A stretch of 64,000 bases of DNA from Acidimicrobiales bacterium. Its GTDB lineage: Bacteria > Actinomycetota > Acidimicrobiia > Acidimicrobiales > SZUA-35. Positions 31,393-47,239 of this stretch are shown in pieces. How positions within the stretch are numbered: the stretch's first letter is position 1; each line of letters begins with the position of its first letter. Under the pieces are notes generated by a model. The model had not been told where the DNA came from and ran no database searches. It saw nothing but the letters and a program-made list of their open reading frames with translations. The translations under genes were made by a program, and so were the position numbers. The stretch covers positions 3,977,423 to 4,041,422 of the forward strand of contig OZ244195.1 of assembly GCA_965216685.1 (NCBI GenBank). The letters are read 5' to 3'.

Positions 31393-31505
31393 GGCGGGAC
31401 GACCTTTCGGTGGGGCGATCCGTTCAGTATCGCATTGATTTGCCGTTCTCGTGCTGTGCACCTGTGCCGTGAACCGTTTGTCGGGTCCGGATCGACAGAG
31501 TTGCC

Positions 31506-33759
31506 ATGCTGGCCATGACAGTCCGTTCGATTCGGTTGCCATCGGTAGTCGTTGCTCTCCTGCTGGTTCTCACCGCCTGTGAGCCGCTCCCCCCGCCGAC
31601 ACCGCGGCCGATGCCGCTGACGACGCCGTCGGGTCCGCCCACAATCGTGTCTCAGACCGTGCCCGATTCCGGGTCGCGGACCTACTCCTTGGGCATCACC
31701 CCGTTCCCTCACGACGTGACCGTCGAGGCGGTCGACGCAGCCTATGCCGTGATGGCCGAACACGCCGATCTACTGGCCTTCCACAGCACCGAAGGAGTGC
31801 CCTGGACGGAGGCGGCGGCCGCTACCGGTTTCCCCGGTTACGGCCCCAACCTGCAGGACAAGTGGCGACGACACCGAGCAGCGATCACCGCCAACCCCGG
31901 ACACGAGGTCTATCTCGGCCTGACACCGCTGAACGACGCCCGCTCCGGTCTGGCCGACTACTGGGCCGAGGCCGAGCACCTGCCCCCACCCGACGGCTTC
32001 GCCGCCGAACGGCTGGACTCGGCCCCGGTGGTTGATGCCTACATCAACTATGTGCTGTCGGCAGTGGAGTGGTACGAGCCCGACTATCTGGCCATCGGGC
32101 TCGAGGTCAACCTTCTGGCCAAGAACGATCCGGCTCGTTGGCCGCAGCTGGTTGAACTGCTGAACGCCACGTACCGGGCGGTGAAGGACCGTCATCCCCA
32201 TCTACCCGTCTTCTCGACGGTTGCCGCCGTCGATCTGCTCGAAGGTTGGACCGACGGCGATCATCTCGCCCAGCGGGCGGCACTGGAGGAGGTTCTCGCC
32301 GCCAGCGACTATCTGGCTCTCTCGTTCCATCCTTTCGCCAGCAACCATCTGACCGGTCCGCTGCCCGATGACGCATTCGACACACTGGCCCAGTTGGCCG
32401 GCGGGCGTCCAATGGCGGTGGCCGAGACCGGATACCCGGCCCAGACGACGAGCTTTCGGAGTTTCGATTTCACGTTGGAAGGAACGCCGGGCAAGCAACG
32501 GGAATGGATCGACACCGTCCTGAACGCGGCGGAGCAGCACCGGATGAGATTCGTGGTCAACTTCATCGGCCGTGACTACGACGCTCTCTGGAGGGCCATC
32601 GGTTCGACCGACGAGGCGGCCCCGTGGCGGGACACCGGCCTGCTGGACGAACAGGGCCGAGCCCGTCCCGCTCTCGACCGGTGGCACCAGGCCCTCTCCA
32701 TTCCCCGCCAGCGGCCCCGGACCGACCACCGCGCCGTCGAGATCGTGCCGGGCGGGCCGGGGACTGCGCAGCTGGTCACCCGACGGCAGCCGCTATCTGG
32801 TCAATGGCAAAGACGACCATGGCGTCTACCAGCTCTATCTCAGCCCGGCCCACGGCGCTTCGGAGACCTGCATCACCTGTGGCCACGGTGCGGGCGCACC
32901 GGCCGCCGATCGTCACAAGCTGCAACCACGGTGGCACCCGTCGGGACAGTGGATCGCCCTCGCCGTCGAACGCCCAGAGTACGAACCGCCGCCCTTCTCG
33001 ACCCCTGAGATCATCGAAGGACTGGTCAACTCGGGTCTGTGGGTGGACATCTACCTGACAACGCCCGACGGCAGCCGGTGGTACCAGCTCACCGACTTCG
33101 CCAACGACCAGTCCGACGGCTTCACCGGCGTGGCCTTCAGTCCCGACGGGACCAGGGCGGCGTGGGCCGAGATCATCGACGGCAACATCTTCGAGAACGT
33201 GTTCGGCCGGTGGAAGCTGCTGCTGGCCGATGTCGAGGTGGCCGAAGACGGAACACCGTCGTTCACCAACCGGACCGACATCACTCCCGAGGGGGCACGC
33301 TGGGTCGAACCGGGCAACTTCGCCCCCGACGGGCGTTCGCTGCTGATTTCATCCGACATCGGTCTGGACGACGCCCAGGGCATGGATCAATACGTGCTCG
33401 ACACAGCCACCGGCTCGGTGAGGAACCTGACCAACAGCCCCGGAATCTGGGATGAGCACGGCGTCTTCTCACCGGACGGAACCAAGATCTTCTTCATGAG
33501 TTCCTATCCCTTTCGGGACGATCCGTGGGTGCACAACACGCTGTTTCTCAAGACCGAGTTCATGTTGATGAACGCCGACGGCAGCGGCCTGGAACAGCTG
33601 ACCTACTTCAACACGCCGGGCCACGAGGAATCGAACACCGGCGGTCGGCTGAGCGTGGCCGCCAACGGCGAGTGGCATCCCGACGGGACGTCGATCTCGG
33701 CGCTGAACCTGTTCTTCCCGACCTACGAAACCTGGACGATCCGCTTCAAGCAGACCTAG
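31506..33759 (+). pseudogene. Lipoprotein with clan GH-A-like domain plus TolB/PD40 beta-propeller, split by an apparent +1 frameshift near 32750-32763
   Basis: Lipobox LTAC; IGLEVN and VAETGYP in ORF 31506; WSPDG, WHPSG, FSPDG repeats in ORF 32572, which has no plausible start of its own. Confidence 0.65.
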
Positions 33760-33771
33760 GTCCTGTACCCG

Positions 33772-35184
33772 CTACTCCATGGCGGCCAGGATGGCGTCGA
33801 TCTCGGCGCTGGTGGTGCGGGGATTGATGAAGCAGAAGCGGAAGACCGGTTTGCCGTCATGGCGGCTGGGCACGACGAAGCCGGTGCCGTCGGCCAGCAT
33901 CTTCTCGGTGCACGCCTGGTATTGGGCGGCGGTCCAGCCGATGCGCTCGAAGACGATGATCGACAGGCCGGGCTCCCACACCAGCCGTAGGTGATCGGCC
34001 ACTTCCACCTTTGCTGCCGCCTCGGCCGCCAGGTCGAGGGTGCGTTGCACCGCCTCGCCGTAGTTGCGGGTGCCGTAGCTGGCCAACGAGAACCAGAAGG
34101 GTAGACCTCGGGATCGACGGGTCAACTGGATGGCGAAGTCGCTGGGGTTCCAGTCGCCGTATACGTCGAGAAACTCCAGGTATTCGGCATGCTGGGAGTG
34201 AACGGCCCGAGCCTGGTCGGGATCCCGCCACAACAGGGCGCAGCAGTCGAAGGGGGCGAAGAGCCACTTGTGAGGGTCGATGATGATCGAGTCGGCCTGC
34301 TCGATGCCGTCGAACAGGTGGCGGGCCTTGGGGGCGGCCAAGGCGCCTCCGCCGTAGGCGGCGTCGACATGGAAGAAGACCTGGCGGTCGTTGCAGACCC
34401 GGCCGACCGATGCCAGGTCATCGATCACTCCCAGATTGGTGGAGCCGGCGGTGGCCACCACACCGGCGATCCGATCGCCGTGTTCATCGAGGGCGGCGGC
34501 CACCAGGTCGCCGGTCAGCCGTCGGTCGGCCCCGGTTGGTACGGCGATGGCGTCGGCATCCATCACCATGGCGGCCGAAGGAACCGACGAGTGAGCCGTG
34601 TCGGAGACCAGGAAGGCCCAACGATCAGGCCGCTCCACTCCCCGCTGCTCGAGCCGGGCCTGGGCTGAACCCCTGGCCCCGACCAGGGCGGAGAGATTGC
34701 CGATGGTGCCCCCCTGCACGAACACGCCGCCTGATTCGCCGCTCAATCCGGCCAGATCGCATAGCCAACGCAGGGCTTCGTTTTCGGCGTAGGTGGCTCC
34801 GGCCCCCTCCAGCCATGACCCGCCGTAGATCGATTCGGCTCCCACCACCAGGTCGAACAGCACCGCCGCCTCGGTCGGGGCGGCGGGAACGAATGACAGG
34901 TAGCGGGTGTTGTCGACCGACAGGCAGGCCGGAGCCAGAACCTCGGCGAAGGCTTTGAGGGCCCGACCGCTGCCGATGCCTTCGGTGGTGATGGTGGGGC
35001 CACCGAGGGCTTCCAGCAGCTCCTGGGCCGAAGCCGAACGGCCCATGGGGGTGGGGTCGAGCGAGACCCGGTCCTTGGCGTAGGCCAGGATGTCATCGGC
35101 CAGAGCATCGATATCGGGTGTGTAGTCGTGCATGGGAGCGGGGTGTTTGAACGACGGATCACCACCGGCCAGGTGATCGGTCAC
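33772..35184 (-). CDS. Group II PLP-dependent amino acid decarboxylase
   Basis: GVFVQGGTIGNL, AHSS, TAGSTNLG.ID, HVDAAYGG, DPHKWL; GTGA-coupled to the upstream SBP gene. Confidence 0.9.
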   Translation of the reverse strand: MTDHLAGGDPSFKHPAPMHDYTPDIDALADDILAYAKDRVSLDPTPMGRSASAQELLEALGGPTITTEGIGSGRALKAFAEVLAPACLSVDNTRYLSFVPAAPTEAAVLFDLVVGAESIYGGSWLEGAGATYAENEALRWLCDLAGLSGESGGVFVQGGTIGNLSALVGARGSAQARLEQRGVERPDRWAFLVSDTAHSSVPSAAMVMDADAIAVPTGADRRLTGDLVAAALDEHGDRIAGVVATAGSTNLGVIDDLASVGRVCNDRQVFFHVDAAYGGGALAAPKARHLFDGIEQADSIIIDPHKWLFAPFDCCALLWRDPDQARAVHSQHAEYLEFLDVYGDWNPSDFAIQLTRRSRGLPFWFSLASYGTRNYGEAVQRTLDLAAEAAAKVEVADHLRLVWEPGLSIIVFERIGWTAAQYQACTEKMLADGTGFVVPSRHDGKPVFRFCFINPRTTSAEIDAILAAME

Positions 35185-36356
35185 GAGCTCTCCACCAGTT
35201 GGCCGTAGCGGTCGTCCAATACTTGTTCATCGGCCGGATCAAGGCCGCCCCAAGTGAACAGTCGACTTCTGGTGGCATCGTCGGGGAAGAGGATCGGACT
35301 GTTGGCCAGTTCGGCCGATGCTCCTCCCCGGGCCAACAGCTGCTCCTGGACACCGAGCACCGGCGAGATGTAGGACACCCATTCGGTGATACGGGCGGCG
35401 TTGGCTGGATCGTACACGAAGTTCATGAATCGACCGGCGGCGGCCAAGGCCGGTGAACCTCGGGGGATCACCATCGTGTCGAACCACTGCACCGCCCCTT
35501 CTTCGGGGATGACGAACTCGATGTCGGGCCGATCGTTCTGCAACAGGGCCATGTCGCCCGACCAGGCCATGGCCGCCACCAGCTGACCGCCGGCCAGGAG
35601 GTCGGCGAACTCCTCGAAGGTGAAGGCCCCGACCTGGCCCGAGGCGGCGGCGTCGGTGATGACATCGAGGGCGGCCTCGGCCGCGGCCAAGGTCGGCCGC
35701 GACGGATCGTCGCCGTTGGCCAGCATCATGAGGCCGACGGCCTCCCGCATCTCGCCGATGAATCCGACCCGCCCGGCGAACGCCGGATCGAGCAGGTCGG
35801 AGATGGACGTGATCGGGCGGCCGGTCAATTCCGGGTCGTAGGCAATACCGGTGATGCCGGCCTGCCAGGGCATCTGGTGGCGACAACCCCGGTCCCAGGA
35901 GTTGGTGAGGAAGGCCGGATCGATGTTGACGTGATTGGGGATGACCTCAATGGGTAGGGCTTCGGCCCATCCGTTGGCGATCATCTCGGCCGCCCGCCAG
36001 TTGGTGGGGACCACGATGTCCCACTGGGGAACGTCGACGTTCACCGCCTCGTCCAACACCTTCTGGAAGCCGTCGATGTTGTCGAGGTAGCCGTCGTCGT
36101 AGACCACCGACAGACCCTCGTCGGCCATGGCCGTCAGCGTTCCCCCGGCGTAGTACGGAACGCCCTCGTCGTCGACATCGATGTAGTCCTGCCAGTTCAA
36201 CACCCGGACCATGGCATCGGTGCCCAGGTCGACGTCACGTCCACCGCCGGCGGACGTGCATGCCCCGAGGCCGAACGCCCCGACACCGGTCGCTCCCAAA
36301 CCGGCCAGGAAACGGCGACGGCTGAGTGGACGCATAGCCTGCGATCGCCGGTTCAT
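35181..36356 (-). CDS. PotD/PotF-class (spermidine/putrescine-type) substrate-binding Tat lipoprotein
   Basis: SRRRFL Tat motif plus LGAC lipobox; LNWQDYID, DIVVPT, PWQAGITGIAY, WSGD, PEEG..WFD. Confidence 0.88.
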   Translation of the reverse strand: MNRRSQAMRPLSRRRFLAGLGATGVGAFGLGACTSAGGGRDVDLGTDAMVRVLNWQDYIDVDDEGVPYYAGGTLTAMADEGLSVVYDDGYLDNIDGFQKVLDEAVNVDVPQWDIVVPTNWRAAEMIANGWAEALPIEVIPNHVNIDPAFLTNSWDRGCRHQMPWQAGITGIAYDPELTGRPITSISDLLDPAFAGRVGFIGEMREAVGLMMLANGDDPSRPTLAAAEAALDVITDAAASGQVGAFTFEEFADLLAGGQLVAAMAWSGDMALLQNDRPDIEFVIPEEGAVQWFDTMVIPRGSPALAAAGRFMNFVYDPANAARITEWVSYISPVLGVQEQLLARGGASAELANSPILFPDDATRSRLFTWGGLDPADEQVLDDRYGQLVESS

Positions 36357-37690
36357 CGGTAGTCTCCCAGGCGGCGCTGCAAGCCGATGATGGTCAAGAT
36401 CCCGGCCAGAACCGACAGCAGGAGGCAGATCCAGGGCAACCGTTCCACCGCCGAGCGGGCCAGGGCGACGCCGTCGGTGAATTGGGTTCGATTGTCGGAC
36501 AGCACCGATTCGATGGCCGTGTTCACCCCGTTGAATGTGGACAGGCCCTGGCCCTGGAAGATGGCCAGCGCCGCGTCCTGGTCACCGGCTTCGGCCAGGG
36601 TGGTGACATCAACCGCGACGTCCCGGTAACGACCCCAACGGACGGCCAATGCCTCGGCCGCCGCTTGTTCCCGGTCGGAGTCGGCGGCCTCGACCGTGGC
36701 CACGACGGCGGTTTCGCCGTCGCTGATGAGCTCGCTGACGGTCACATTCCGCGAACCCTGACCGGGGGAATCGAGAAGTAGGAGCCCGAGCTGTGACTGC
36801 AGGCCGAACGTGGCCTCCTGCATCTGGGCGCTGGCCACAACGGCGTCGTATCCGCCGGCGCTGGCATCGTTGAGAGCCTGCTGGCGAACGGCGTAGCCGT
36901 TTATCAGTACGGCCAGGAAGCCGATGAAAGCCAGGGTGGCCAGGAGCAGAAGCGGATTGATGATCCGCCGCACCCGTTTGGCCAGACCGTATTGGACCCA
37001 GGCCAACACGATGAGCGTCAACAGTCCCAGCCCGACGGCCAGCGCCACCAGGAGGTCGCCTCGGGCCGCCTCGTCGTCGTAGCGATTGTTGGCCAGTGTG
37101 GTGATGGTTCCCACGGTCGGTCCGATCTCGGCGTCGACCAGGGCCAGGGCCGTTCGCAGCCGATCGTCGGCGTCGGCCACGCCGTTAAGATTGGCCACTC
37201 GGGCACCCTCGACTGCGCTGCCGTACTCGGTCAAGGAGGCGGAGATGGTCTGCAAGGCGGCGGCCGACTCGGCGCCATCGCCCCCGGATCCGTCGACGCC
37301 GGTCCGTCCCAGATCGGCCGAGACCACGGTCAGTTGCTCGGTGGCCCGTCGGCGGGCGTCGAGATAGAGATTCCGGCTGGCCCGATCCTCGACCCCAACG
37401 GCGTCGACTGACAAGTGGGCGGCCGTGGCCGCGGCGTTGGCCTCGGCCACCGAGGCGAACAGATCCTGCACCTCGATCAACGACGGAGCGGTCGATTCAC
37501 TGGTGGTGCGGGCGGCGTCCTGGAGGAGAAACCCGCCGACGACCCCGAGCACGCCGCTGGCCGCCATCAGGATGGGCACGATGACCATCCAGCGCTGCAG
37601 GAACCGCACTGTTCGTCCGCCACCGGGGCCGACGGCCACAGCCGACGACGTTGGAGCCGGGGGGCTGGCGGTCGCGGGAGTGGTGGTCAT
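36353..37690 (-). CDS. glnX: GlnX-like membrane sensor (about 4 TM, two extracytoplasmic helical bundles)
   Basis: LFASVAEANAAATAA, LTEYGSAVEGARVAN..G, RRIINP.L, C-terminal GLQRRLGDYR, resembling actinobacterial GlnX; divergent from pknG. Confidence 0.75.
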   Translation of the reverse strand: MTTTPATASPPAPTSSAVAVGPGGGRTVRFLQRWMVIVPILMAASGVLGVVGGFLLQDAARTTSESTAPSLIEVQDLFASVAEANAAATAAHLSVDAVGVEDRASRNLYLDARRRATEQLTVVSADLGRTGVDGSGGDGAESAAALQTISASLTEYGSAVEGARVANLNGVADADDRLRTALALVDAEIGPTVGTITTLANNRYDDEAARGDLLVALAVGLGLLTLIVLAWVQYGLAKRVRRIINPLLLLATLAFIGFLAVLINGYAVRQQALNDASAGGYDAVVASAQMQEATFGLQSQLGLLLLDSPGQGSRNVTVSELISDGETAVVATVEAADSDREQAAAEALAVRWGRYRDVAVDVTTLAEAGDQDAALAIFQGQGLSTFNGVNTAIESVLSDNRTQFTDGVALARSAVERLPWICLLLSVLAGILTIIGLQRRLGDYR

Positions 37691-37807
37691 GACGTCCAAC
37701 AGCTTAGTGTCCTGTCAGGTTGGTCCGTTGTCTGTGCGACGGGCGCGCCCGTCGCGGTCCGCCGACAGCGGCCGAAGACGGCGTGGGCAAACTATGCTCA
37801 AGTCACT

Positions 37808-39028
37808 GTGGCGTCGGACCATTCCCACCAATCCGGATCACCATCCGCCCCTGGTCGATCCCTTTCATTGGACGGTGTCGGCGGGCTGGAACGGTTGACG
37901 GCGGCGGTGAACGGCCTGCGGGCCGGAATTGTCGAGCTGGAGCAGTTGCCCTCCTATCTGATGCTGGCCGACGCCGAGCCCGGGACCAAGACAGCGGCCG
38001 CCTACGCCACCGCGGTCGGCCAGGCCGCCGACTTCTGGCCCCTGCTCGACGGGTTGACCGACCGGATCGAACAGGGTCGACGGTTTGTCGAGGAACACCG
38101 GCTGGACACCGGTTCCACCGGCCGACGGGTCGACGAGCTGTCACGACTGACAACCCAACCGATGACCGTTGCCCTGACCGACGGGCACCGAACCCTGGCC
38201 GTGACCGCCGCCATCGACCTGCTCCGCCAACGCTACGACGCCGTCCATCACGGCGTCAGCCGCATCGACCGGGCCTGGCTCGACGTCCTCCCCCGGGTCG
38301 AAGCGGCCCGGGAGACGGTGGAGCGATTGAAGGCCGAGGCCGAGACCCTGGGAGTGGTCGAGCCCCTTATCGGGAGAGCCGAGCGGCGGGCCGAGGATCT
38401 GGCCGAACGGCTACTGGTCGACCCGATCAGCGTCGCCGACTCGGAGGGAATCGAGCTCGACCGTCTGGTGGCCGATGCCGCCCGCCACATGTCCGGCCTG
38501 CGGTCGGGCCACGACAACCTGGGCGATGATCTGGCCGAGACCGGCAACATCTTGGCCTCGCTTCGTGTCCTGCGGACCAGGGCGGCGGCGGCCGCCACCG
38601 AGGCTCGGCAGAAGGTGGTGAACCCCCGGGATCTCGTCACGGCGCCGGCCCGGACGATCATCGACGGCCCGGGCGGCCTGGCCCAACGACTGGATGAGCT
38701 GTTGGCCCTGGCCGATGGTGCCGAGGGCGCAGCCCTCTGGACCCGGCAGCGAACGCTGCTCGATCAGTGGCTGGCCATGGCGGCCAAGCTGGAACGACAG
38801 CTGACCGAAGCCGGGCATCGCAACCGGCGCGACCTCGATCGACGAGACGAACTCCGGGGCCGTCTGCAGGCCTTTCAGGCCAAGATGGCGGCCACCGGTC
38901 ATGCCGAATCGGCCGCCGCCATGGAACTGGCCGACTCGGCCTGGACAGAGCTCTACACTGCTCCCAGTGATCTGGATGCCGCCGAAGAGGCCATCGCCCA
39001 GCTGGCCGTCGAACTGCGAAAGCGCTGA
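37808..39028 (+). CDS. All-helical/coiled-coil protein upstream of the PknG-like kinase
   Basis: Heptad-rich; C-terminal RRDELRGRLQAFQAK...LYTAPSDL; GTG start 37808 chosen because the longer ORF overlaps glnX. Confidence 0.75.
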   Translation: MASDHSHQSGSPSAPGRSLSLDGVGGLERLTAAVNGLRAGIVELEQLPSYLMLADAEPGTKTAAAYATAVGQAADFWPLLDGLTDRIEQGRRFVEEHRLDTGSTGRRVDELSRLTTQPMTVALTDGHRTLAVTAAIDLLRQRYDAVHHGVSRIDRAWLDVLPRVEAARETVERLKAEAETLGVVEPLIGRAERRAEDLAERLLVDPISVADSEGIELDRLVADAARHMSGLRSGHDNLGDDLAETGNILASLRVLRTRAAAAATEARQKVVNPRDLVTAPARTIIDGPGGLAQRLDELLALADGAEGAALWTRQRTLLDQWLAMAAKLERQLTEAGHRNRRDLDRRDELRGRLQAFQAKMAATGHAESAAAMELADSAWTELYTAPSDLDAAEEAIAQLAVELRKR

Positions 39029-39034
39029 TCTGCG

Positions 39035-41614
39035 ATGACGAACCTGTCGCCCAACACCGTCGCTGCCTGCCCGGAGCCTGATTGCGGTGGCGCCATAGCC
39101 GCCGACGGCTACTGCGACACCTGCGGTGTCAAGTATCAGGGCGGCCCGGCCCCGGCGGCCGCCCCCCGGGTGTCAGCCCCGGCCTCGCCCCCTCCACCCC
39201 CGGGATCATCGGCGGCCGCCATTCCTGCCGGGTCGGTGTGTGGCCGCGACGGCTGTGTCGGCACCATCGCCGCCGACGGCTACTGCGACACCTGCGGCTT
39301 GGCCGCCGACGCCGGAGTAGGGGCCGCGGCCGCCGTCGTGGCGGCCGGTGGTGAGCCGGCGGCTTCGTCCGAGTCGGCCGAAGCAATCGTCGGCGCCGTC
39401 GTGCCTTCGATCGCGGTCCCCCGTCCACCCGACGTCTCCACCTCGGTGACGTCGGCTGAAAGCGGTTCGGCTCGCACCCGCCGGACCTCGGCTTCGCGCC
39501 GCACCGCCTCCCGCCGCACCGGTATCGGTGCCGGGCTGGTGACCGTCACGCCGACCGACGTCGGCGATCCGGCCAAGGCCGTGATGTCCGAGGCCGAGGT
39601 GGCGTCGGTTCTGGGTGAGGTACCGGAGGACGAACGGTTCTGCTCCAGCTGCGGCAAGGCGGTGGGCCGGTCGACCGGGGACCAGGCCGGTCGGGTCAAG
39701 GGATTCTGTGGCCACTGCCGCACCCCGTTCGACTTCATCACCAACGCCCCCGGATTGGCCGCCGGTGAAGTGATCGCCGGCCAGTATGAGATTCTGGGGC
39801 CACTGGCCCACGGTGGGATGGGCTGGATCTATCTCGGACGGGACCGGGCGGTGTCGAACCGCTGGGTCGTGTTGAAAGGGCTCCTCAACGAAGACGATCC
39901 CGACGCCATCGCCGCCGCGGTGGCCGAGCGCCGGTTCCTGGCCCAGATCGAGCACGCCAACATCGTCAACATCTACAACTTCGTCACTCACCGGGGTGCC
40001 GGCTACATCGTCATGGAGATGGTCGGAGGCGAATCGCTCAACGCCAAGCTCAAAGCCCGCCGGGCAGCCAACGGGGGAGTGGCCGACCCTCTGCCGGTCA
40101 CCGACGCCATTGCCTACATCCTCGGCATCCTGCCCGCCCTGGCCTACCTCCATGGGCTGGGGCTCGTCTACAACGATCTGAAGCCGGCCAACATCATGGC
40201 CGTGGGCGACGACGTCAAGCTGATCGATGTCGGAGCGGTCATGCGGATGGACGACCGGCAGGCCGCCATCTTCGGAACCGAGGGATTTCAGGCTCCTGAG
40301 ATGGCCGAAACCGGACCATCGGTGGCCTCCGACCTCTACACCGTCGGCCGGACCCTGGCCGTGCTCGTCATCCGTTTCGTGTTCCACACCGGGCGTTATC
40401 AGTACAGCCTGCCCACCCAGGCCACCGAACCGCTGTTCACCCAGTGGGAGTCGCTCTACCGCTTTCTTCTCAAGGCCACCGCCGCCCACCCCGACGACCG
40501 ATTCCAGTCGGCGGTCGAGATGCAGGAGCAGCTGACCGGCGTGCTGCGGGAGATCGTGGCCGTCACCTCCCGCACCCCGAGGGCGGCGCTGTCGACCGAG
40601 TTCGAACCCGACCGGCTGTCCCACCTCCTGCTCAGCACCGCCGAGAACTTCGACGCCACTCGGGTCGACTGGCGGGTACTGCCCCCGGCCCGGATCGACG
40701 AATCTGATCCCGCCGCCCCCTTCCTGCTCGATCTGCTGGAGGACAATCCGGCCGGTAACCTGGCCACGATCCTGGCCGCGGCCGGGTCCCAACAGATTGA
40801 GCTCAGCCGCGGTTTGTTGCTCCGCTACGCCTGGGAGCTGATCCAGGTTGGTGGCCGGGACGGCGCGGTGACGGCTACCCAGGCCGAGCAGATGCGTCAA
40901 CTCGGCGCTTCACCGGACAAGGTGCTCTATCGGTTGGAGATGGAGGATCCTTGGGACTGGCGAGTGTGGTGGTACCGGGCGGTTCATCAGCTGCAGGCTC
41001 AGGGGGCGGCGTTGGCGGCCGAAGGCTTCAGCCGAGTCTGGACCGAGCTCCCGGGTGAGACGGCGCCAAAACTGGGGGTGGCGCTTGCCGCCGAACAAGC
41101 CGGCCAGCTCGACCGGGCCCGGCAGGTGTTTGATCTGGTGTCCCGTTCCGATTCGAGTTACGTGTCGGCCGCCTTCGGCCTGGCCCGGTGCAACATCGCC
41201 CAGGCCAGCGTGCCGGAGGCGGTGGAGGCGTTCGACCGGGTGCCGTCTTCGTCGGCCGCCCACTACGACGCCCAGGTGGCGGCGGCCCGCACGCTGGCCT
41301 CGGGATCGGATCAGCAGCTGCCGTCGGTCTCCGATCTGTCCGAGGCGTCGTCGATCATCGACCGTCTGGAACTCGATGCCAACGAACGGGCGTCGATCTC
41401 GGCCGACATCTTCGAGAAGGCCCTTGACGGTCTGCTCAGTGGGCGGATCCAGCCTTCCGACGCCAAACTTCTGGGCCGAGACCTCAGCGAGCGCGATCTG
41501 CGCACGGGCCTGGAGGAGACCTACCGGTTCATGGCCAGGATGGCTCCTGACGCCGGTTCACGGGCCGCGCTCATCGATCGGGCCAACAACGTACGGCCCT
41601 GGAGCCTGATCTGA
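39035..41614 (+). CDS. pknG: PknG-like soluble Ser/Thr kinase (Zn-ribbons, rubredoxin, kinase, TPR)
   Basis: RFCSSCG...FCGHC rubredoxin; AGQYE..G.LAHGGMGWIYL, WVVLKGL, YNDLKPANIM, IDVG, GTEGFQAPE; TPR DWRVWWY; end DRANNVRPWSLI. Confidence 0.88.
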   Translation: MTNLSPNTVAACPEPDCGGAIAADGYCDTCGVKYQGGPAPAAAPRVSAPASPPPPPGSSAAAIPAGSVCGRDGCVGTIAADGYCDTCGLAADAGVGAAAAVVAAGGEPAASSESAEAIVGAVVPSIAVPRPPDVSTSVTSAESGSARTRRTSASRRTASRRTGIGAGLVTVTPTDVGDPAKAVMSEAEVASVLGEVPEDERFCSSCGKAVGRSTGDQAGRVKGFCGHCRTPFDFITNAPGLAAGEVIAGQYEILGPLAHGGMGWIYLGRDRAVSNRWVVLKGLLNEDDPDAIAAAVAERRFLAQIEHANIVNIYNFVTHRGAGYIVMEMVGGESLNAKLKARRAANGGVADPLPVTDAIAYILGILPALAYLHGLGLVYNDLKPANIMAVGDDVKLIDVGAVMRMDDRQAAIFGTEGFQAPEMAETGPSVASDLYTVGRTLAVLVIRFVFHTGRYQYSLPTQATEPLFTQWESLYRFLLKATAAHPDDRFQSAVEMQEQLTGVLREIVAVTSRTPRAALSTEFEPDRLSHLLLSTAENFDATRVDWRVLPPARIDESDPAAPFLLDLLEDNPAGNLATILAAAGSQQIELSRGLLLRYAWELIQVGGRDGAVTATQAEQMRQLGASPDKVLYRLEMEDPWDWRVWWYRAVHQLQAQGAALAAEGFSRVWTELPGETAPKLGVALAAEQAGQLDRARQVFDLVSRSDSSYVSAAFGLARCNIAQASVPEAVEAFDRVPSSSAAHYDAQVAAARTLASGSDQQLPSVSDLSEASSIIDRLELDANERASISADIFEKALDGLLSGRIQPSDAKLLGRDLSERDLRTGLEETYRFMARMAPDAGSRAALIDRANNVRPWSLI
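39098..39297 (+). repeat. Exact 29-bp direct repeat (39098-39126, 39269-39297) encoding duplicated AADGYCDTCG Zn-ribbon
   Basis: GCCGCCGACGGCTACTGCGACACCTGCGG read twice. Confidence 0.9.
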
Positions 41615-41616
41615 CT

Positions 41617-42729
41617 GTGATCGCCGACGAAGCACAAACCTGCCCGAGCTGTGGTCAGCAGAGTCCGGCGGTGGCCAAGTGGTGTGAGGAATGCGGCCAT
41701 GATCTGGCCGCCGAACCCAAACCGGAGTGCGTTACCTGCGGCGAAGCGGCGGTGGAGGACGACGGCTACTGCCACTCGTGCGGCCACCGCCAACCGGGTC
41801 CCCGCGATCATGTCGAGGTCGTCGATGGATCAGTGGCTGCGGTGTCGGATCGGGGTCAGCGCCATCACCACAACGAGGACGCGGTGGCTGTCGCCGTGGC
41901 CGGTGACGGCGCTGTCGTCCTGGTCGTCTGCGACGGGGTGTCATCTACTCCGGGTTCGGCCGAGATCTCGCAGGTGGCGGCCTCGGTCACCGCCGACACC
42001 CTGCTGGAGTGGCTGGACAAGCCCGAACGTCCGCCGTCCGGTGTCGCCGCCGACGACGAAGCGCTCCTGGCCGCCCTCGACACCGCCCGGTCCGAGGTCG
42101 ACAGAGCCAGCCAACAGACCCAAGTCGACGACCTGAATCCACCGTCTTCGACCCTGGTGACTGCGGTGGCCCGAATGATCGCCGGCGACGGTGACAGCGA
42201 CAACGGGGAGCGGTCGGTGGCGGTTTCGGTCATGTGGCTGGGCGACAGCCGGGTGTACTGGCTGGACGGCGACCGGGCCCGCCTGTTGACGGTTGATCAC
42301 GAGATCGACGGGGCGTTGACCCGCTGGCTCGGTGCTGACGCCGCCGACCATCGCCCCGAGATCATTCATGAGACATTCACCGCCGATGACGATGCCGACC
42401 TCATCGTCTGCAGTGATGGTATGTGGCGCTACTTCCACCCTGAGCTCGGCCAACCGGCCCCCGACCTCGTGCGGCGGTTGAAGGCCGACGGCCTGGCCGG
42501 CCTGGCCCTCGTCCGGGCCATGGTTGACTTCGCCAACGAGTGTGGCGGCCACGACAACATTTCCGTGGCCCACTGGGCACCGGGGTCACCGGATTCGACC
42601 GATGGCAGTACCGTTGATGCCGAGAAGCCGGATCCGCCCGACGAGGGCGCTGACCAAGTGGCGGACCAGACCACCGATCCAGCAAGCGAACAGGCGGAGG
42701 ATGATCCGCCGGAGGAACCGACGATATGA
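41617..42729 (+). CDS. PP2C/PPM Ser/Thr phosphatase with N-terminal double Zn-ribbon
   Basis: Four CxxC; SDRG..HHHNEDA, VCDGV, GDSR, CSDG, GGHDNIS. Confidence 0.9.
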   Translation: MIADEAQTCPSCGQQSPAVAKWCEECGHDLAAEPKPECVTCGEAAVEDDGYCHSCGHRQPGPRDHVEVVDGSVAAVSDRGQRHHHNEDAVAVAVAGDGAVVLVVCDGVSSTPGSAEISQVAASVTADTLLEWLDKPERPPSGVAADDEALLAALDTARSEVDRASQQTQVDDLNPPSSTLVTAVARMIAGDGDSDNGERSVAVSVMWLGDSRVYWLDGDRARLLTVDHEIDGALTRWLGADAADHRPEIIHETFTADDDADLIVCSDGMWRYFHPELGQPAPDLVRRLKADGLAGLALVRAMVDFANECGGHDNISVAHWAPGSPDSTDGSTVDAEKPDPPDEGADQVADQTTDPASEQAEDDPPEEPTI

Positions 42730-44009
42730 CCGATTTTTCCGCTCAGGTGTTCCAGAACGAATTCCTGCCCGCCGGGGCCGACACCGTTGACGCCGTTGTC
42801 ACCGTCACCGCCTCCGCCGGGGCCTCGGTCGGCACGACCCGAGGCGATGCGGTCGAGATCATCGTGATCGACACCTCGGGATCGATGCAGGAGGAGGGCG
42901 GGCGCAAGATCCGGGCCGCCGTCGAGGCCACCCAGGCGGCCATCGACACCATCGACGACGGCTGCCACTTCGCCATCGTGGGCGGTACCGCCGGAGCCTA
43001 CATGATCTATCCCAACGACGGGCTGGCGGTGGCCGACGACGCCAGCCGTCAACAAGCCAAAGACTCGGTGGCCAAGGTCAGGGCCCGGGGTGGCACCGCC
43101 ATTGGCAGCTGGCTGCGGGCCGCCGCCTACCTGGCGGCCCAACGACCGGGGGCCATCGCCCACGCTCTGCTGCTCACCGACGGCAAGAACCAGAACGAGA
43201 AACCGGCCGAACTCGATGCCCGCATCAGCGAGTGCATCGGTCGTTTCCAATGTGACGCCCGGGGTCTCGGCGTTGACTGGGACATCAGCGAACTACGGAA
43301 GGTGGCCTCCGCCCTTCTGGGCACGGTGGACATCATTCCCCGTCCCGAGGACATGCACGACGAGTTCACCAGGTTGACCGAGGCCGCTATGGGCAAGCAG
43401 GTCGGCAGTGTGGCCCTGCGGCTGTGGAACCCCAAGGGCTCGGTCTGCGAGTTCGTCAAACAGGTGGCCCCGACCCTCGAAGACCTGACTCCGCTGGGTC
43501 AGGCCGTCAACCCCCTGACCACCGACTACCCGCTGGGAGCCTGGGCCGGCGATGAGGATCGCGACTACCACATCCGGGTGCGGATTCCGGTCGGAGGCGT
43601 CGGCGACGAGCGGCTGGCCGCCCGCATCATGCTGGTGATTGACGACAGCGAGCAGCCGGCAGCCCTCGTCAGGGCCATCTGGACCGACGACGAACGGCTG
43701 TCGACCCGCATCAACCGGGAGGTGGCCCACTACACGGGTCAGGCCGAGCTGGCCGACGCCATCGCCGAAGGCCTGGCCGCCCGGGAATCGGGCGATGGTC
43801 AGACGGCCACAGTGAAGTTGGGGCGAGCCGTTCAACTGGCCCACGAGAGTGGTAACGACGCCACGGTCCGGCTGCTGCAGAAGGTCGTCGAGGTCGACGA
43901 CGCGGCCAGCGGCACCGTCCGGCTTCGCCGTGACGTTGAAAAGAGCGACGAGATGGCGCTCGACGTACGATCAACCCGTACCGTTCGCGTCAACCGGAAG
44001 GCGGACTAG
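42726..44009 (+). CDS. von Willebrand factor A domain protein
   Basis: MIDAS DTSGS, GGTAIG, LLTDG; C-terminal STRTVRV. Confidence 0.92.
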   Translation: MTDFSAQVFQNEFLPAGADTVDAVVTVTASAGASVGTTRGDAVEIIVIDTSGSMQEEGGRKIRAAVEATQAAIDTIDDGCHFAIVGGTAGAYMIYPNDGLAVADDASRQQAKDSVAKVRARGGTAIGSWLRAAAYLAAQRPGAIAHALLLTDGKNQNEKPAELDARISECIGRFQCDARGLGVDWDISELRKVASALLGTVDIIPRPEDMHDEFTRLTEAAMGKQVGSVALRLWNPKGSVCEFVKQVAPTLEDLTPLGQAVNPLTTDYPLGAWAGDEDRDYHIRVRIPVGGVGDERLAARIMLVIDDSEQPAALVRAIWTDDERLSTRINREVAHYTGQAELADAIAEGLAARESGDGQTATVKLGRAVQLAHESGNDATVRLLQKVVEVDDAASGTVRLRRDVEKSDEMALDVRSTRTVRVNRKAD

Positions 44010-44015
44010 ACAGCA

Positions 44016-44654
44016 ATGGCCACGACATGTGACAACTGCGGCGAAACTCATGGACCCGACGACCTGTTCTGTGAGAGCTGCGGCTACGACTTCGTGACCG
44101 GATCGGTCCCCGAATCGTCTGATCTGCCGCCGCTCGTCGTCCCTGACCCTGAGCCCGCCGACCAGCCCGACAACGCCGACCAGTCCGACAGCGATGCCGA
44201 CTCGGTGCCCGAACCATCACCGGTACCGTCGCTGGTCGACGGCGGAGCCGATGGCATACCCCTGGTGTTGGTGGCCGTCTCGACCGACGCCGACTATTTC
44301 GCCGCCATGGTGACCGAAGGCGAGGTTCCCCTGCCCGATCCGCTGCCTCCGGATCAGGAACTCGAACTGTTCGGCACCGAGCTCCACATCGGACGCACCA
44401 GCGACAGCCGGGCCGTTCATCCCAACATCGACATCGAGGCCCTGACCGGTGACCCGGCGGTGTCGACCAGGCATGCCGTCCTCCGGGTTTCCGACAACGG
44501 CACCATGACCATCACCGATGTGGGCTCGACCAACGGTACCTTCATCGACAGCTTCGACACCGACCCGATCACCCAGGGGATCCCGGTCGAGCTGAGCGAC
44601 GACAGCGTTGTATATCTCGGCGCCTGGACCAAGTTGGCCGTCAAGCCCGGATAG
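44016..44654 (+). CDS. FHA domain protein with N-terminal Zn-ribbon
   Basis: CDNC...CESCG; FHA motifs IGR, VSTRHA, DVGSTNGT. Confidence 0.9.
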   Translation: MATTCDNCGETHGPDDLFCESCGYDFVTGSVPESSDLPPLVVPDPEPADQPDNADQSDSDADSVPEPSPVPSLVDGGADGIPLVLVAVSTDADYFAAMVTEGEVPLPDPLPPDQELELFGTELHIGRTSDSRAVHPNIDIEALTGDPAVSTRHAVLRVSDNGTMTITDVGSTNGTFIDSFDTDPITQGIPVELSDDSVVYLGAWTKLAVKPG

Positions 44655-45640
44655 TGATGTTTCTTCCCTTTGCTGACACCGAATCGGGGAACTTCGTCGC
44701 CCTGGGCGACATCGGGACCACGCCCTGGATCCTGCTGGGGGTGTTGGTCCTGGTGCTGCTGGCCATCGACCTGTATCGCCATCGCCACGCCCACGAGCCG
44801 ACGTTCCGCGAGGCTCTGTTCGAATCTCTCTTCTGGGTGGCCTGCGGTCTGGGGTTCTCCCTCTATGTTCTCCTCAGCTTCGGCAACCTGGCCTTCGGCG
44901 AATACCTGAGTGGCTACCTGATCGAGAAGGCGCTCAGCGTCGACAACGTGTTCGTCTGGTCGATGCTGTTCACCTCGATGGCCATCCCGCTGAAGTACCA
45001 GCACCGGGTTCTGTTCTACGGGATCTTCGGGGCGCTGGTCATGCGGGCCATCTTCATCTTTCTCGGGGCCGAATTGCTAGAACGGTTCGAGATTCTGTTG
45101 CTGGTTTTCGGGGTGTTCCTGATCTACACCGGTCTGGGTGTCATCAGGCACCGCGACGACGAGGGCGACACCAGTTCCCGCCGGGGCATGTCGATACTGG
45201 AACGTTTCATTCCGGTCAGTGATGAGTTCGACGGCCAGAAGTTCTTCACCATCAAGAACGGGCATCGGGTGGCCACGCCCCTGCTGGCGGCGTTGGTGGT
45301 GGTCGAGGTAACCGACGTGATCTTCGCCGTCGACTCGGTCCCGGCCATCCTGGCCGTCTCCCAGGATCGATTCCTGGTGTTCTCCTCCAATGCCTTCGCC
45401 ATCCTCGGGCTCAGGGCCATGTACTTCCTGCTGGCCGGAGCCAAAGAGCGGTTCCACTACCTCAACCACGGTCTGGGAGCGATTCTGGTGTTCGTCGGCG
45501 GCAAGATGATCGGGGCCTGGCGGGGCTTCCACCTCGACGTCTGGATTTCGCTCGGTATCATCGCGTTGCTGCTGATCGCCGCCATCTTGTTCTCCGAACG
45601 TAAGAACCGTCAGATCGAGCGGGAACGTCTCTCGGTCTAG
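44654..45640 (+). CDS. TerC/Alx family metal homeostasis membrane protein
   Basis: GYLIEKALSVDNVFV, QHRVLFYGIFGALVMR, EVTDVIFAVDSVPA, SNAFAILGLR. Confidence 0.93.
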   Translation: MMFLPFADTESGNFVALGDIGTTPWILLGVLVLVLLAIDLYRHRHAHEPTFREALFESLFWVACGLGFSLYVLLSFGNLAFGEYLSGYLIEKALSVDNVFVWSMLFTSMAIPLKYQHRVLFYGIFGALVMRAIFIFLGAELLERFEILLLVFGVFLIYTGLGVIRHRDDEGDTSSRRGMSILERFIPVSDEFDGQKFFTIKNGHRVATPLLAALVVVEVTDVIFAVDSVPAILAVSQDRFLVFSSNAFAILGLRAMYFLLAGAKERFHYLNHGLGAILVFVGGKMIGAWRGFHLDVWISLGIIALLLIAAILFSERKNRQIERERLSV

Positions 45641-45784
45641 AAGAACCCGGAAGGTGAGGCGATCAGCGGGGTTCGGCGAGGGTCGTCGGACCGCTGCCAC
45701 CCGATAGCTATGCCGGGGAGGGTCTCGGCCGATGGATCAATCGTGGATGTCACCGACCGGTTGCCGGAGTCGAAATCGAGTGCC

Positions 45785-47239
45785 ATGACCGAGGTCGCGG
45801 CGGCCACAGCCGGTGTTGGGCCCGAACATCGTTGGCTCACCGTGGCCTGGCCTCTGGCCGTGGTCTTCCACCTATTGGCCAACAGTGCCTACCTGGTCGC
45901 CCTGTTCACCGGGGTGCCCACGGTGGTTGGTGTGCTGCAACTGATGATGGCGGCCCTGGCTGTGCTGGTACTGATGCAGCCTCGCTCGGCTTATGTGGCC
46001 GCTCTTGGCCTGCTGTTCGTCGTCGTGGCCGTGCTCAAGGCTCCGTTCATCGGCAACCACGAGGTGATTCTGGCCCTCTGCGCCCTAACCGTGCTATTGG
46101 CCGTGCTCGGTTCCGGTGGGCGCTGGCCCGGCACTGCACTGCCGGTGTTGCGGTGGGTGCTCATCATCGCCTACGCCAGCATTGCCCTGTCGAAACTGAA
46201 CGCCAGCTTCTTCGATCCTGCGGTCAGCTGTGCCGTGGTCTTCGGCGACGAATTCAGCCGCTGGCTGGGCTTTCGAGTATCGGACGTCCGTTCCCTCTCG
46301 GTGGCCGCCATCTGGACCACGGCGGTAGTCGAGTTGGCCATTCCGGTTCTGCTGGTTGTTCGCCGTTGGCGGGTCGCCGGGTTGGTGCTGGCCATGATGT
46401 TCCACTACGTGTTGGCTCTGGAGCCGGTCGGGCACGTCTTCGATTTCACGGCCACCCTGTTCCCGCTCTTCCTGGCCTTCGCCCCCGCCGAGGTGCAAAC
46501 CCTGGTGTCGGATCGGATCGATGGACTCGCCGGGGGACGGGGTCGGGCGGGGTTGGCCCTGGGGGTCGGAGCAGTGTTGCTGGCCCATGGCGTCGTCATG
46601 GTCGCCGGCTGGCCGATCTGGGTGGTGGCCTATCCCGCCTGGCTGCTGGTGGGGACGTCGGTGCTGTGGTGGGTGCTTACCGCTGTTGTCGGTCGAGGCC
46701 GGAACGGGGCCGGATGGCGGGGTGAAGGGGTCCAAGCCCGCGGTCCGATACCGATGCTGGTTCCGATCGTGGCCATCCTGGTGGCCAACGCCGTGGCCCC
46801 CTATCTTCAGATCCGTACTGCCGCCGCCTTCAACATGTACTCCAACCTGGAGACGGTCTATGTTGACGGCGATCACTACCTGTTCTCCGCTGTGGGCGGG
46901 GTTCGATCGAGCGAGATGTTGTTGATCGTCGATACTCCTGACGACCATCCGCTGGCCTACTACCGTGATGGCGGTCGAGCGGTTGCCGCTGACAATCTTC
47001 GTCGCTATCAGCGCAACCGCCTGGTCGATTCCTCCGACCCGGAGGCGTTGGCGGCCGATGATGAGGTCAGGTTGCGTTGGTTGGTCAGCGACGCCGTTGA
47101 TCCCCCCGATCGGCTTTCCGACCTCGACCCCGGCCCCGGGGGATGGGGTGAGTTGCTGGCCCACAAGTTCGGGTTCGTCCGGGCCGTTGATGTCTCCCAA
47201 CCGGCCCGGTGCCTGCGATCCTGGGGACCCGTCGGTTGA
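45785..47239 (+). CDS. Multi-TM protein, HTTM / vitamin K-dependent carboxylase-like
   Basis: FIGNH, Y....SKLNASFFDPAVSC, E..IP..L, FH, FNMYSNL; start may be 45710. Confidence 0.6.
   Translation: MTEVAAATAGVGPEHRWLTVAWPLAVVFHLLANSAYLVALFTGVPTVVGVLQLMMAALAVLVLMQPRSAYVAALGLLFVVVAVLKAPFIGNHEVILALCALTVLLAVLGSGGRWPGTALPVLRWVLIIAYASIALSKLNASFFDPAVSCAVVFGDEFSRWLGFRVSDVRSLSVAAIWTTAVVELAIPVLLVVRRWRVAGLVLAMMFHYVLALEPVGHVFDFTATLFPLFLAFAPAEVQTLVSDRIDGLAGGRGRAGLALGVGAVLLAHGVVMVAGWPIWVVAYPAWLLVGTSVLWWVLTAVVGRGRNGAGWRGEGVQARGPIPMLVPIVAILVANAVAPYLQIRTAAAFNMYSNLETVYVDGDHYLFSAVGGVRSSEMLLIVDTPDDHPLAYYRDGGRAVAADNLRRYQRNRLVDSSDPEALAADDEVRLRWLVSDAVDPPDRLSDLDPGPGGWGELLAHKFGFVRAVDVSQPARCLRSWGPVG

Follow-up and report, generated by a model that had tools for sequence, protein, structure and literature searches.

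The membrane transducer GlnX belongs to the GlnH-GlnX-PknG-GarA/OdhI pathway of Mycobacterium and Corynebacterium (PMC6069109, PMC9769921, PMC8050422), and GlnH/GlnX/PknG is presented, in a 2021 review, as the only characterised Ser/Thr kinase system stimulated by a substrate-binding protein (SBP) (PMC8050422). A PotD-like SBP signals without transport in the NspS-MbaA system of Vibrio cholerae (PMC8050422, PMC8079147, PMC8967002), and in ScrABC of Vibrio parahaemolyticus a pyridoxal phosphate (PLP)-dependent enzyme makes an extracellular signal that is read by the SBP and the transducer of the same operon (PMC4488946). Here, we describe a locus at positions 33772-45640 of a 64,000-nucleotide stretch of Acidimicrobiales DNA (hereafter, the window; 3,977,423-4,041,422 of a single-contig 5.39-Mb genome), in which glnX and pknG stand beside genes for a PotD-family SBP and a group II PLP-dependent amino-acid decarboxylase (DC). 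Genes were called from a listing of open reading frames (ORFs) combined with Pfam and NCBIfam hidden Markov model scans. We put at roughly 0.6 the probability that the locus encodes a GlnH-GlnX-PknG pathway with a swapped sensor, answering to a di- or polyamine. What would be new is the fold of the sensor, its probable class of ligand and the enzyme linked to it; the transducer and the kinase were already known.

The locus shares with GlnH-GlnX-PknG a four-pass GlnX-family transducer with two outer helical domains and conserved cytoplasmic residues, a lipoprotein SBP encoded right after glnX without a transporter, a PknG that has rubredoxin and TPR domains, and, away from the locus, a gene for a GarA-like FHA protein. 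It differs in that the SBP belongs to SBP_bac_8 (the PotD family) and not to SBP_bac_3, the predicted ligand is an amine and not Asp/Glu, and the outer contact residues of GlnX are not the same. Furthermore, the sensor operon includes the DC gene, glnX is divergent from or downstream of pknG instead of upstream, and the kinase operon also has genes for an all-helical protein (CC), a PP2C phosphatase, a vWA-domain protein and an FHA-domain protein. NspS-MbaA similarly has an SBP_bac_8 protein beside a membrane transducer and not a transporter, and NspS senses polyamines, including self-made norspermidine; MbaA, however, is a GGDEF-EAL transducer with cyclic di-GMP output, whereas here GlnX comes with a Ser/Thr kinase. 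To our knowledge, the nspS-mbaA operon holds no biosynthetic enzyme. ScrABC follows the same operon logic, in which a PLP-dependent enzyme is joined by an SBP and a membrane transducer, but ScrA is aminotransferase-like, ScrB belongs to SBP_bac_3, ScrC is a GGDEF-EAL protein, and there is no homology beyond the PLP and SBP superfamilies. Finally, the PotABCD/PotFGHI importers have the same SBP fold and ligand-contact residues, and the nearest outgroup loci are of the importer kind; the present SBP differs from them in having no permease or ATPase gene beside it, in its clade-specific surface residues, and in missing the equivalog cut-offs by far.

Searches of the literature on GlnX and PknG, with supplements and subscription journals outside their coverage, found no PotD-type partner, no decarboxylase and no long CC-PP2C-vWA-FHA form. 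The word "polyamine" was not found in the accessible text of PMC9769921, and neither "polyamine" nor "PotD" in that of a 2026 bioRxiv preprint (10.64898/2026.07.02.735984), whose abstract calls GlnX "uncharacterised". Within this coverage, the arrangement is without a known description, as an initial annotation of the window had supposed.

The GlnX-SBP-DC operon and its conservation

The sensor operon lies on the minus strand and consists of glnX (36353-37690), the SBP gene (35181-36356; SBP_bac_8, 91.7 bits) and the DC gene (33772-35184; PF00282, 198 bits with a cut-off of 27), coupled by 4-base overlaps that read ATGA between glnX and the SBP gene and GTGA at the second junction. The initial annotation had described nine genes in two divergent operons separated by about 117 bp. 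All nine were recovered at the same coordinates in the ORF listing and by Pfam and NCBIfam, the spacer (37691-37807), presumed to be a shared promoter region, measures 117 bp, and both overlaps are present in the sequence. Its statement that no ATP-binding cassette (ABC) permease or ATPase is nearby also held for ten ORFs that flank the locus and were scanned over 24932-51926 (~10 kb). A scan for sigma-70 consensus promoters and terminators between 33500 and 39100 gave 0 and 0, which is uninformative in this phylum.

The glnX product matches NF058618 with E 7.7e-51, the alignment spanning positions 9-413 of the 413-position model. Kyte-Doolittle analysis placed hydrophobic segments at ~33-58, 212-236, 245-268 and 417-438, corresponding to four membrane passes, and by hydropathy two extracytoplasmic stretches of ~150 residues each are left, together with a cytoplasmic loop of ~8 residues and a tail of ~7. 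The second outer domain has a partial match to 4HB_MCP_1 (PF12729), limited to residues 341-400 (26.3 bits with a cut-off of 27). Eleven positions (R106, Y109, Y156, E161, R164, L178, R242, N245, F386, R440 and Y444) are conserved in 69 PotD-type GlnX proteins and also in 11 GlnH-type ones, where no position has more than one exception. The full-length match, the four segments and the residues held in common with GlnH-linked GlnX uphold the assignment of this protein as GlnX, although its score is below the curated cut-off. It is the sole GlnX of the genome and lies beside the sole PknG (judged by the PknG_TPR match), and GlnX is encoded with the SBP and PknG both at the window and in relatives.

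A profile search with the SBP in species-representative genomes returned 106 relatives; the best 80 by SBP similarity were kept, 26 weaker ones being left out, and the neighbouring genes in these 80 loci were identified by tblastn with the window proteins. The order GlnX-SBP-DC was found in 77 of the 80 loci, while the other three, which are the most distant (46-47% identity), have the order PotA-SBP-PotB-PotC. GlnX precedes the SBP in 72/75 loci with at least 1200 nt upstream, the three misses being the Pot-linked loci (72/72 non-Pot); an automated adjacency filter counted 71, and a partial GlnX match in L111 was added by eye. Similarly, the DC follows the SBP in 69/72 loci with at least 1300 nt downstream, and the misses are again the Pot-linked loci (69/69 non-Pot). 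In two loci, L073 (between 9122 and 11901) and L104 (same contig as L043; L043/L104 3389-6259), ~2.8-2.95 kb are inserted between the SBP and DC genes, and the insert of L104 holds a DUF222/HNH endonuclease gene and a 468-aa ORF without assignment. The recurrence of the GlnX-SBP-DC order is far beyond chance, and the linkage is not unique to one genome. Apart from two weak PotA-like ABC matches (30% identity) several kb off in L063 and L104, no permease or ATPase is found near the 77 trios.

The position of the trio relative to the PknG block is also conserved, in two orientations. The block is divergent from the trio, as in the window, in 39 loci plus 7 cut by the contig end, and colinear with it (CC-PknG-PP2C-vWA-FHA-GlnX-SBP-DC) in 12 loci plus 7 cut in the same way. 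Within the same GTDB genus, a GlnX orthologue is present in 24/24 other genomes (41-68% identity), and DC-SBP-GlnX is divergent from CC-PknG-PP2C-vWA-FHA wherever contigs allow. Class- and phylum-level surveys detected strong GlnX matches (best E <= 5e-51 in the former) in 5/151 sampled Acidimicrobiia genomes and in 21/401 genomes of the phylum; in the latter survey, four candidates were scored per genome and absences are weak. The locus records are mostly titled Acidimicrobiales, with two Nitriliruptoria/Nitriliruptorales, a few other Actinomycetota and one "Verrucomicrobiales". This last record (L089) carries a full actinobacterial eight-gene module with an SBP that nests among those of Acidimicrobiales, and is probably a binning error. 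All relatives come from environmental metagenome-assembled genomes, which makes the host-amine sensing raised in the initial annotation unlikely.

Outside this family, the gene after glnX encodes another kind of binding protein. Five other Acidimicrobiia loci have the genes AAA-glnX-SBP_bac_3-CC-pknG-PP2C-vWA-FHA in one direction (AAA checked in three of them, SBP_bac_3 in four), three Streptomyces-like loci have glnX-glnH-(CC homologue)-pknG-PP2C-vWA, and seven Mycobacterium-like loci have the short form glnX-glnH-pknG (10 loci of other Actinomycetota in all). A GlnH-type SBP_bac_3 protein follows glnX in these lineages, so the slot normally holds such a protein, and the earlier view that an unrelated fold, SBP_bac_8, fills it here is well founded. 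The 78 GlnX-linked SBPs have a single origin in one clade (SH-aLRT, an approximate likelihood ratio test, 99), apart from the three Pot-linked SBPs and the genome's own PotD, and the GlnX tree is split by one branch (SH-aLRT 100) into 69 PotD-type and 11 GlnH-type proteins. The two trees, both quick (IQ-TREE with LG+G4 for the SBP), without bootstraps and neither securely rooted, agree with a single exchange. The initial annotation had named three outcomes that would count against its scheme: a different identity for GlnX, an SBP that clusters with transport-linked PotD together with a linkage restricted to this genome, and a glnH elsewhere that docks on GlnX when this SBP does not. Each was looked for and none was seen; the SBP stands in a separate clade, the genome has neither a second GlnX nor a glnH-glnX pair, and the SBP itself is predicted to dock.

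A side observation concerns the GlnH-type loci, where a gene for an AAA+ ATPase with AAA_lid_6 overlaps the start of glnX (L003 8224-9678 and L004 10565-12004, with a candidate at L005 10455-11855). This ATPase is absent from the PotD-type loci examined.

Predicted docking on GlnX and the ligand pocket

Prediction of the complex between GlnX 30-445 and SBP 34-391, using locus-matched alignments of 69 rows, gave an ipSAE of 0.80 (runs 0.81, 0.78 and 0.80), the best of three controls reaching 0.00. The ipSAE mark is reached by 58/80 solved complexes and 2/110 mismatched pairs, a calibration that is only rough with custom alignments. At least 72% of contacts recur between runs, and the pLDDT (predicted local distance difference test) of the partner is at least 89. 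The searches made here turned up no solved GlnX complex, and the predictor is therefore unlikely to owe the docking score to a structure learnt beforehand. The model supports, without proving it, binding of the SBP to the outer domains of GlnX.

The predicted interface comprises GlnX 98-111, 337-351 and 379-403, all extracytoplasmic, and SBP 39-42, 135-159, 219-220 and 360-370. Four clade-invariant SBP residues lie within it, E137, R156, R159 and R220, for which the three Pot-linked proteins have D, P, T/K/A and D/V/T, respectively. Among the SBP positions at least 90% conserved in the clade, 44% are kept in the Pot-linked proteins inside the interface (n=9) compared to 87% outside (n=87). On the side of GlnX, R340, E341, R351, N387, N390, E394 and Q403 are 94-99% conserved in the PotD-type proteins and different in the GlnH-type ones, whereas the cytoplasmic residues R242 and N245 of the loop and R440 and Y444 of the tail are conserved in both types. 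The outer face of GlnX appears to have changed with the partner and the inner face not, as would be predicted for a sensor swap on a fixed kinase-coupling device.

The SBP has an N-terminal twin-arginine motif (SRRRFLAG) and a lipobox (LGAC) with Cys33, and across 69 orthologues the conservation of R13, R14 and C33 is 90% or more. Its matches to NCBIfam equivalogs are weak (PotD, 73 bits with a cut-off of 582; PotF, 61 with a cut-off of 636), and all 22 distinct PDB sequences that match the SBP profile (E <= 1e-10) are polyamine-binding-type SBPs or close homologues, for example Lmo0810.

The pocket was mapped via a HMMER alignment to full-length E. coli PotD (8y5h_E). The ligand-contact positions other than E36, E171 and D257 are those reported for the original PotD structures. 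According to PMC4096761, the three nitrogens of spermidine are held by Glu36, Glu171 and Asp257 of PotD. In the window SBP, W34 of PotD corresponds to W55, E36 to D57, Y37 to Y58, S83 to T118, Y85 to W120, D168 to E202, E171 to E205, W229 to W265, W255 to W291, D257 to D293 and Y293 to Y329. Ten of these eleven contact equivalents (W34, Y37, S83, Y85, D168, E171, W229, W255, D257 and Y293) are kept in 75-78 of the 78 GlnX-linked SBPs. The eleventh, D57, is acidic in 64/78 (42 D, 22 E), and the other residues seen there are L (7 proteins), Q (5) and G (1). The pocket is therefore under selection and looks polyamine-like. An N-terminal acidic insertion after the WxDY motif was considered as a signature of the GlnX-linked clade and rejected, as it occurs in Pot-linked relatives too.

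Only one other relative of the SBP is encoded in the genome. It is 30% identical and is the product of the last gene of a potA-potB-potC-potD operon (997,017-1,001,185) ~3 Mb away. The cell thus has a conventional polyamine importer complete with a dedicated binding protein, and the GlnX-linked SBP is separate from it.

Proposed mechanism, decarboxylase and alternative explanations

From these data, we infer the following mechanism. The PotD-family lipoprotein, exported by the twin-arginine (Tat) route, would bind an extracellular cation of di- or polyamine-like nature; this lipoprotein would have descended from the binding protein of a polyamine transporter and now has no adjoining transporter. 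Its docking site would be the pair of extracytoplasmic helical domains of GlnX, and chiefly the second of them. GlnX would relay the signal across the membrane, via the four helices, to the loop and tail on the cytoplasmic side, which are very short, are conserved with the GlnH-type proteins and would control PknG. PknG may in turn phosphorylate FHA proteins, namely the zinc-ribbon FHA protein of the operon and a GarA/OdhI-like protein encoded beside gcvH. PP2C would reverse this phosphorylation, and the vWA and helical CC proteins could act as a scaffold. The strictly co-inherited cytoplasmic DC may make the sensed amine or set its level, resulting in a self-signalling or homeostatic loop.

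The DC is the best-conserved member of the trio (57-89% identity), has no signal peptide and is taken to be cytoplasmic. It carries the motif DPHKW with the PLP-binding lysine. Three sources were consulted for its substrate, and none settles the assignment. The best NCBIfam match is L-2,4-diaminobutyrate decarboxylase (NF052646), with 177 bits and an equivalog cut-off of 900 that is not reached. The best PDB sequence matches are 4obu, 4rit, DOPA decarboxylases, 5o5c and 2qma, and the best solved relatives include tryptophan, Sphaerobacter, DOPA and desferrioxamine-pathway decarboxylases and the Vibrio diaminobutyrate enzyme. Source names are generic, with two JGI labels reading "L-2,4-diaminobutyrate decarboxylase". 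The genome has one match to PF02784 (the Orn/Arg/DAP-decarboxylase family) and five to PF00282 (group II decarboxylases). No spermidine synthase was found above the cut-off genome-wide, the only match having 20.9 bits (13602-14030 of the window; 3991024-3991452 of the contig). These counts suggest that the classical ornithine/arginine polyamine route is not evident in the genome; the product of the DC is not identified thereby.

The precedents of ScrABC and NspS-MbaA make it a reasonable hypothesis that the enzyme produces the signal. We give the idea that the DC makes the sensed compound about one chance in three, because no exporter was found. A complete self-signalling circuit, quorum-like or of the autocrine kind that the initial annotation had envisaged, is doubtful. 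In such a circuit, a di- or polyamine made by the DC would leave the cell and be read by the SBP, and GlnX would act through PknG to reset nitrogen and carbon metabolism via the FHA proteins. Among bacterial Hanks-type kinases, this would be the first with an amine autoinducer as its input, and the circuit would be widespread in environmental Acidimicrobiales.

Several points weigh against a swapped, amine-responsive sensor. GlnX scores below both NCBIfam cut-offs (NF058618, 173.5 bits with a cut-off of 250; NF041460, 26.1 with a cut-off of 780). The Pot-linked contrast consists of three sequences, two of them nearly identical, and because the complex predictor was fed alignments of the same loci, the placing of clade-specific residues in the interface depends in part on the prediction's own input. 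In L066, L071 and L074, which have full upstream flanks, the trio stands without an adjoining pknG block, and in one such genome that was checked pknG is on another contig. The ligand may vary, because the D57 position is non-acidic in 13/78 SBPs. The best solved relatives of the DC are aromatic-amino-acid decarboxylases, whose products seem a less obvious fit than a diamine for a PotD pocket with three acidic residues, and no amine exporter was found in the cluster. Finally, the relatives are all known from metagenome-assembled genomes.

Of the alternative explanations, the one that survives best keeps the proposed wiring with a ligand that is not a polyamine. The SBP would then recognise the amino acid that the DC consumes or some other cationic metabolite, with diaminobutyrate, ornithine, lysine, agmatine, γ-aminobutyrate (GABA) or an aromatic amine as candidates, and the DC would be catabolic or detoxifying and not a signal maker. 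SBPs of the PotD/PotF family bind varied amines, and the variation at the E36-equivalent position, the aromatic substrates of the closest solved DC relatives by sequence and the missing exporter gene all fit this explanation. Nevertheless, ten of the eleven mapped PotD contacts are kept almost throughout the clade, including both remaining acidic nitrogen-binding residues, and the diaminobutyrate decarboxylase that is the best NCBIfam match of the DC, though far below its cut-off, forms a diamine. We consider a non-polyamine ligand unlikely.

It is improbable that the SBP is an extra, unlinked binding protein that feeds the distant PotABC, forming an uptake-synthesis pair with the DC, with GlnX merely co-regulated. 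Orphan SBPs that share a transporter are known, the SBP family stems from transporter SBPs, with PotA-SBP-PotB-PotC loci as its nearest outgroup, the ligand pocket is intact, and the genome has one potABC set. On the other hand, GlnX adjoins the SBP in every non-Pot locus with room for it, here with an ATGA overlap, and no permease or ATPase accompanies the trios bar the two weak PotA-like matches. Moreover, the invariant surface residues of the SBP clade differ from those of the Pot-linked proteins, with matching changes on the outer domain of GlnX, and a docking score of 0.80 with controls at 0.00 would not be expected for such an orphan SBP.

It is very improbable that the cluster serves primarily in stress or conflict in the manner of TerY-P (vWA, PP2C, kinase, FHA, TerC), with the trio as an unrelated neighbour kept by lineage chance. 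The TerY-P triad of vWA, PP2C and Ser/Thr kinase (Anantharaman et al. 2012, cited in PMC10542128) and a Deinococcus vWA-kinase-FHA-PP2C operon have been described, and the three genes are adjacent here with terC after them. The kinase, however, has the complete PknG architecture, including rubredoxin and PknG_TPR, and lacks a C-terminal zinc ribbon (the ribbons are on the PP2C and FHA proteins), the same CC-PknG-PP2C-vWA-FHA block adjoins glnX-glnH in other lineages, and the trio stays with the block in two orientations in at least 51 loci with pknG in view, a retention through rearrangement that argues for function.

For the swapped-sensor pathway, the consequences would be several. A natural variant helps to learn how GlnX reads its partner: with the sensor fold exchanged and the cytoplasmic face kept, the locus would provide a ready-made comparison for mapping the sensor-reading and the kinase-facing surfaces of GlnX. 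PknG would gain a second class of input, amines, and the system may matter for polyamine sensing by a common uncultured environmental lineage of sediments and soils.

Kinase operon and flanking genes

The operon on the plus strand begins with the CC gene (37808-39028), which is always found directly upstream of pknG. The CC protein has no Pfam match, and its AlphaFold model (pLDDT 93.9) consists entirely of long helices. Foldseek against the PDB returned nothing at E<=0.001 (best, EzrA 4uy3, E 0.06), VIA-align gave generic helical matches, with TBK1 and EzrA as the best (both Z 10.8, below the caution line of ~13 for helical proteins), and the ESM Atlas gave unnamed Actinomycetota clusters. 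A CC homologue is also encoded between glnH and pknG in GlnH-type loci, including a Streptomyces-like locus (hhalign probability 98.6%), and CC therefore belongs to the kinase block and not to the swap. In the Streptomyces-like L037 (10134-14177), one frame of 1347 codons spans the CC homologue and PknG, which is either a fusion or a high-GC artefact.

The PknG-type Ser/Thr kinase (39035-41614, +) has the rubredoxin, kinase and PknG_TPR domains (PF16919, 66.5 bits; PF00069, 97.8; PF16918, 200.6). It is followed on the same strand by genes for a PP2C phosphatase with an N-terminal double zinc ribbon (41617-42729; PF13672 and PF12773), a vWA-domain protein with VWA_3 and VWA_3_C (42726-44009; PF13768 and PF18571), an FHA-domain protein with an N-terminal zinc ribbon (44016-44654; PF00498 and PF13248) and a TerC/Alx-family membrane protein (44654-45640; TIGR03718, 363 bits). 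TerC is linked in the nearer relatives only, being beside or near the FHA gene in nine same-genus loci. The CC-PknG-PP2C-vWA-FHA combination is a widespread "long form" of the operon and points to PknG partners that are lacking in the mycobacterial model.

A GarA/OdhI-like FHA protein (143 bits with a cut-off of 200) is encoded directly after gcvH (~4634012-4634599 of the window's contig; L033 1258-1845); garA of mycobacteria neighbours gcvH as well. Where the mycobacterial protein has its N-terminal tail, this one carries a zinc ribbon, and the FHA protein of the operon has the same kind of ribbon.

Beyond the two operons, the 10 flanking ORFs encode an alanine dehydrogenase, a hydrolase, MeaB, a methylmalonyl-CoA mutase, a PhyH dioxygenase, a PD40 protein, the product of an ORF that overlaps the PD40 gene (with a weak glycosyl-hydrolase match), a Rieske-thiamine-pyrophosphate enzyme and two proteins without a Pfam match. 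At 45710-47239 (+), a 509-aa protein without a Pfam match is encoded after TerC, both here and in several same-genus loci (42-64% identity). The Rieske enzyme (29425-31542, -) is an unusual-looking fusion of 705 aa, in which all three domains of a thiamine-pyrophosphate enzyme are preceded by a Rieske [2Fe-2S] domain at the N-terminus. This region stays beside the DC gene in the nearest relatives, as observed from matches of the ORF on the opposite strand.

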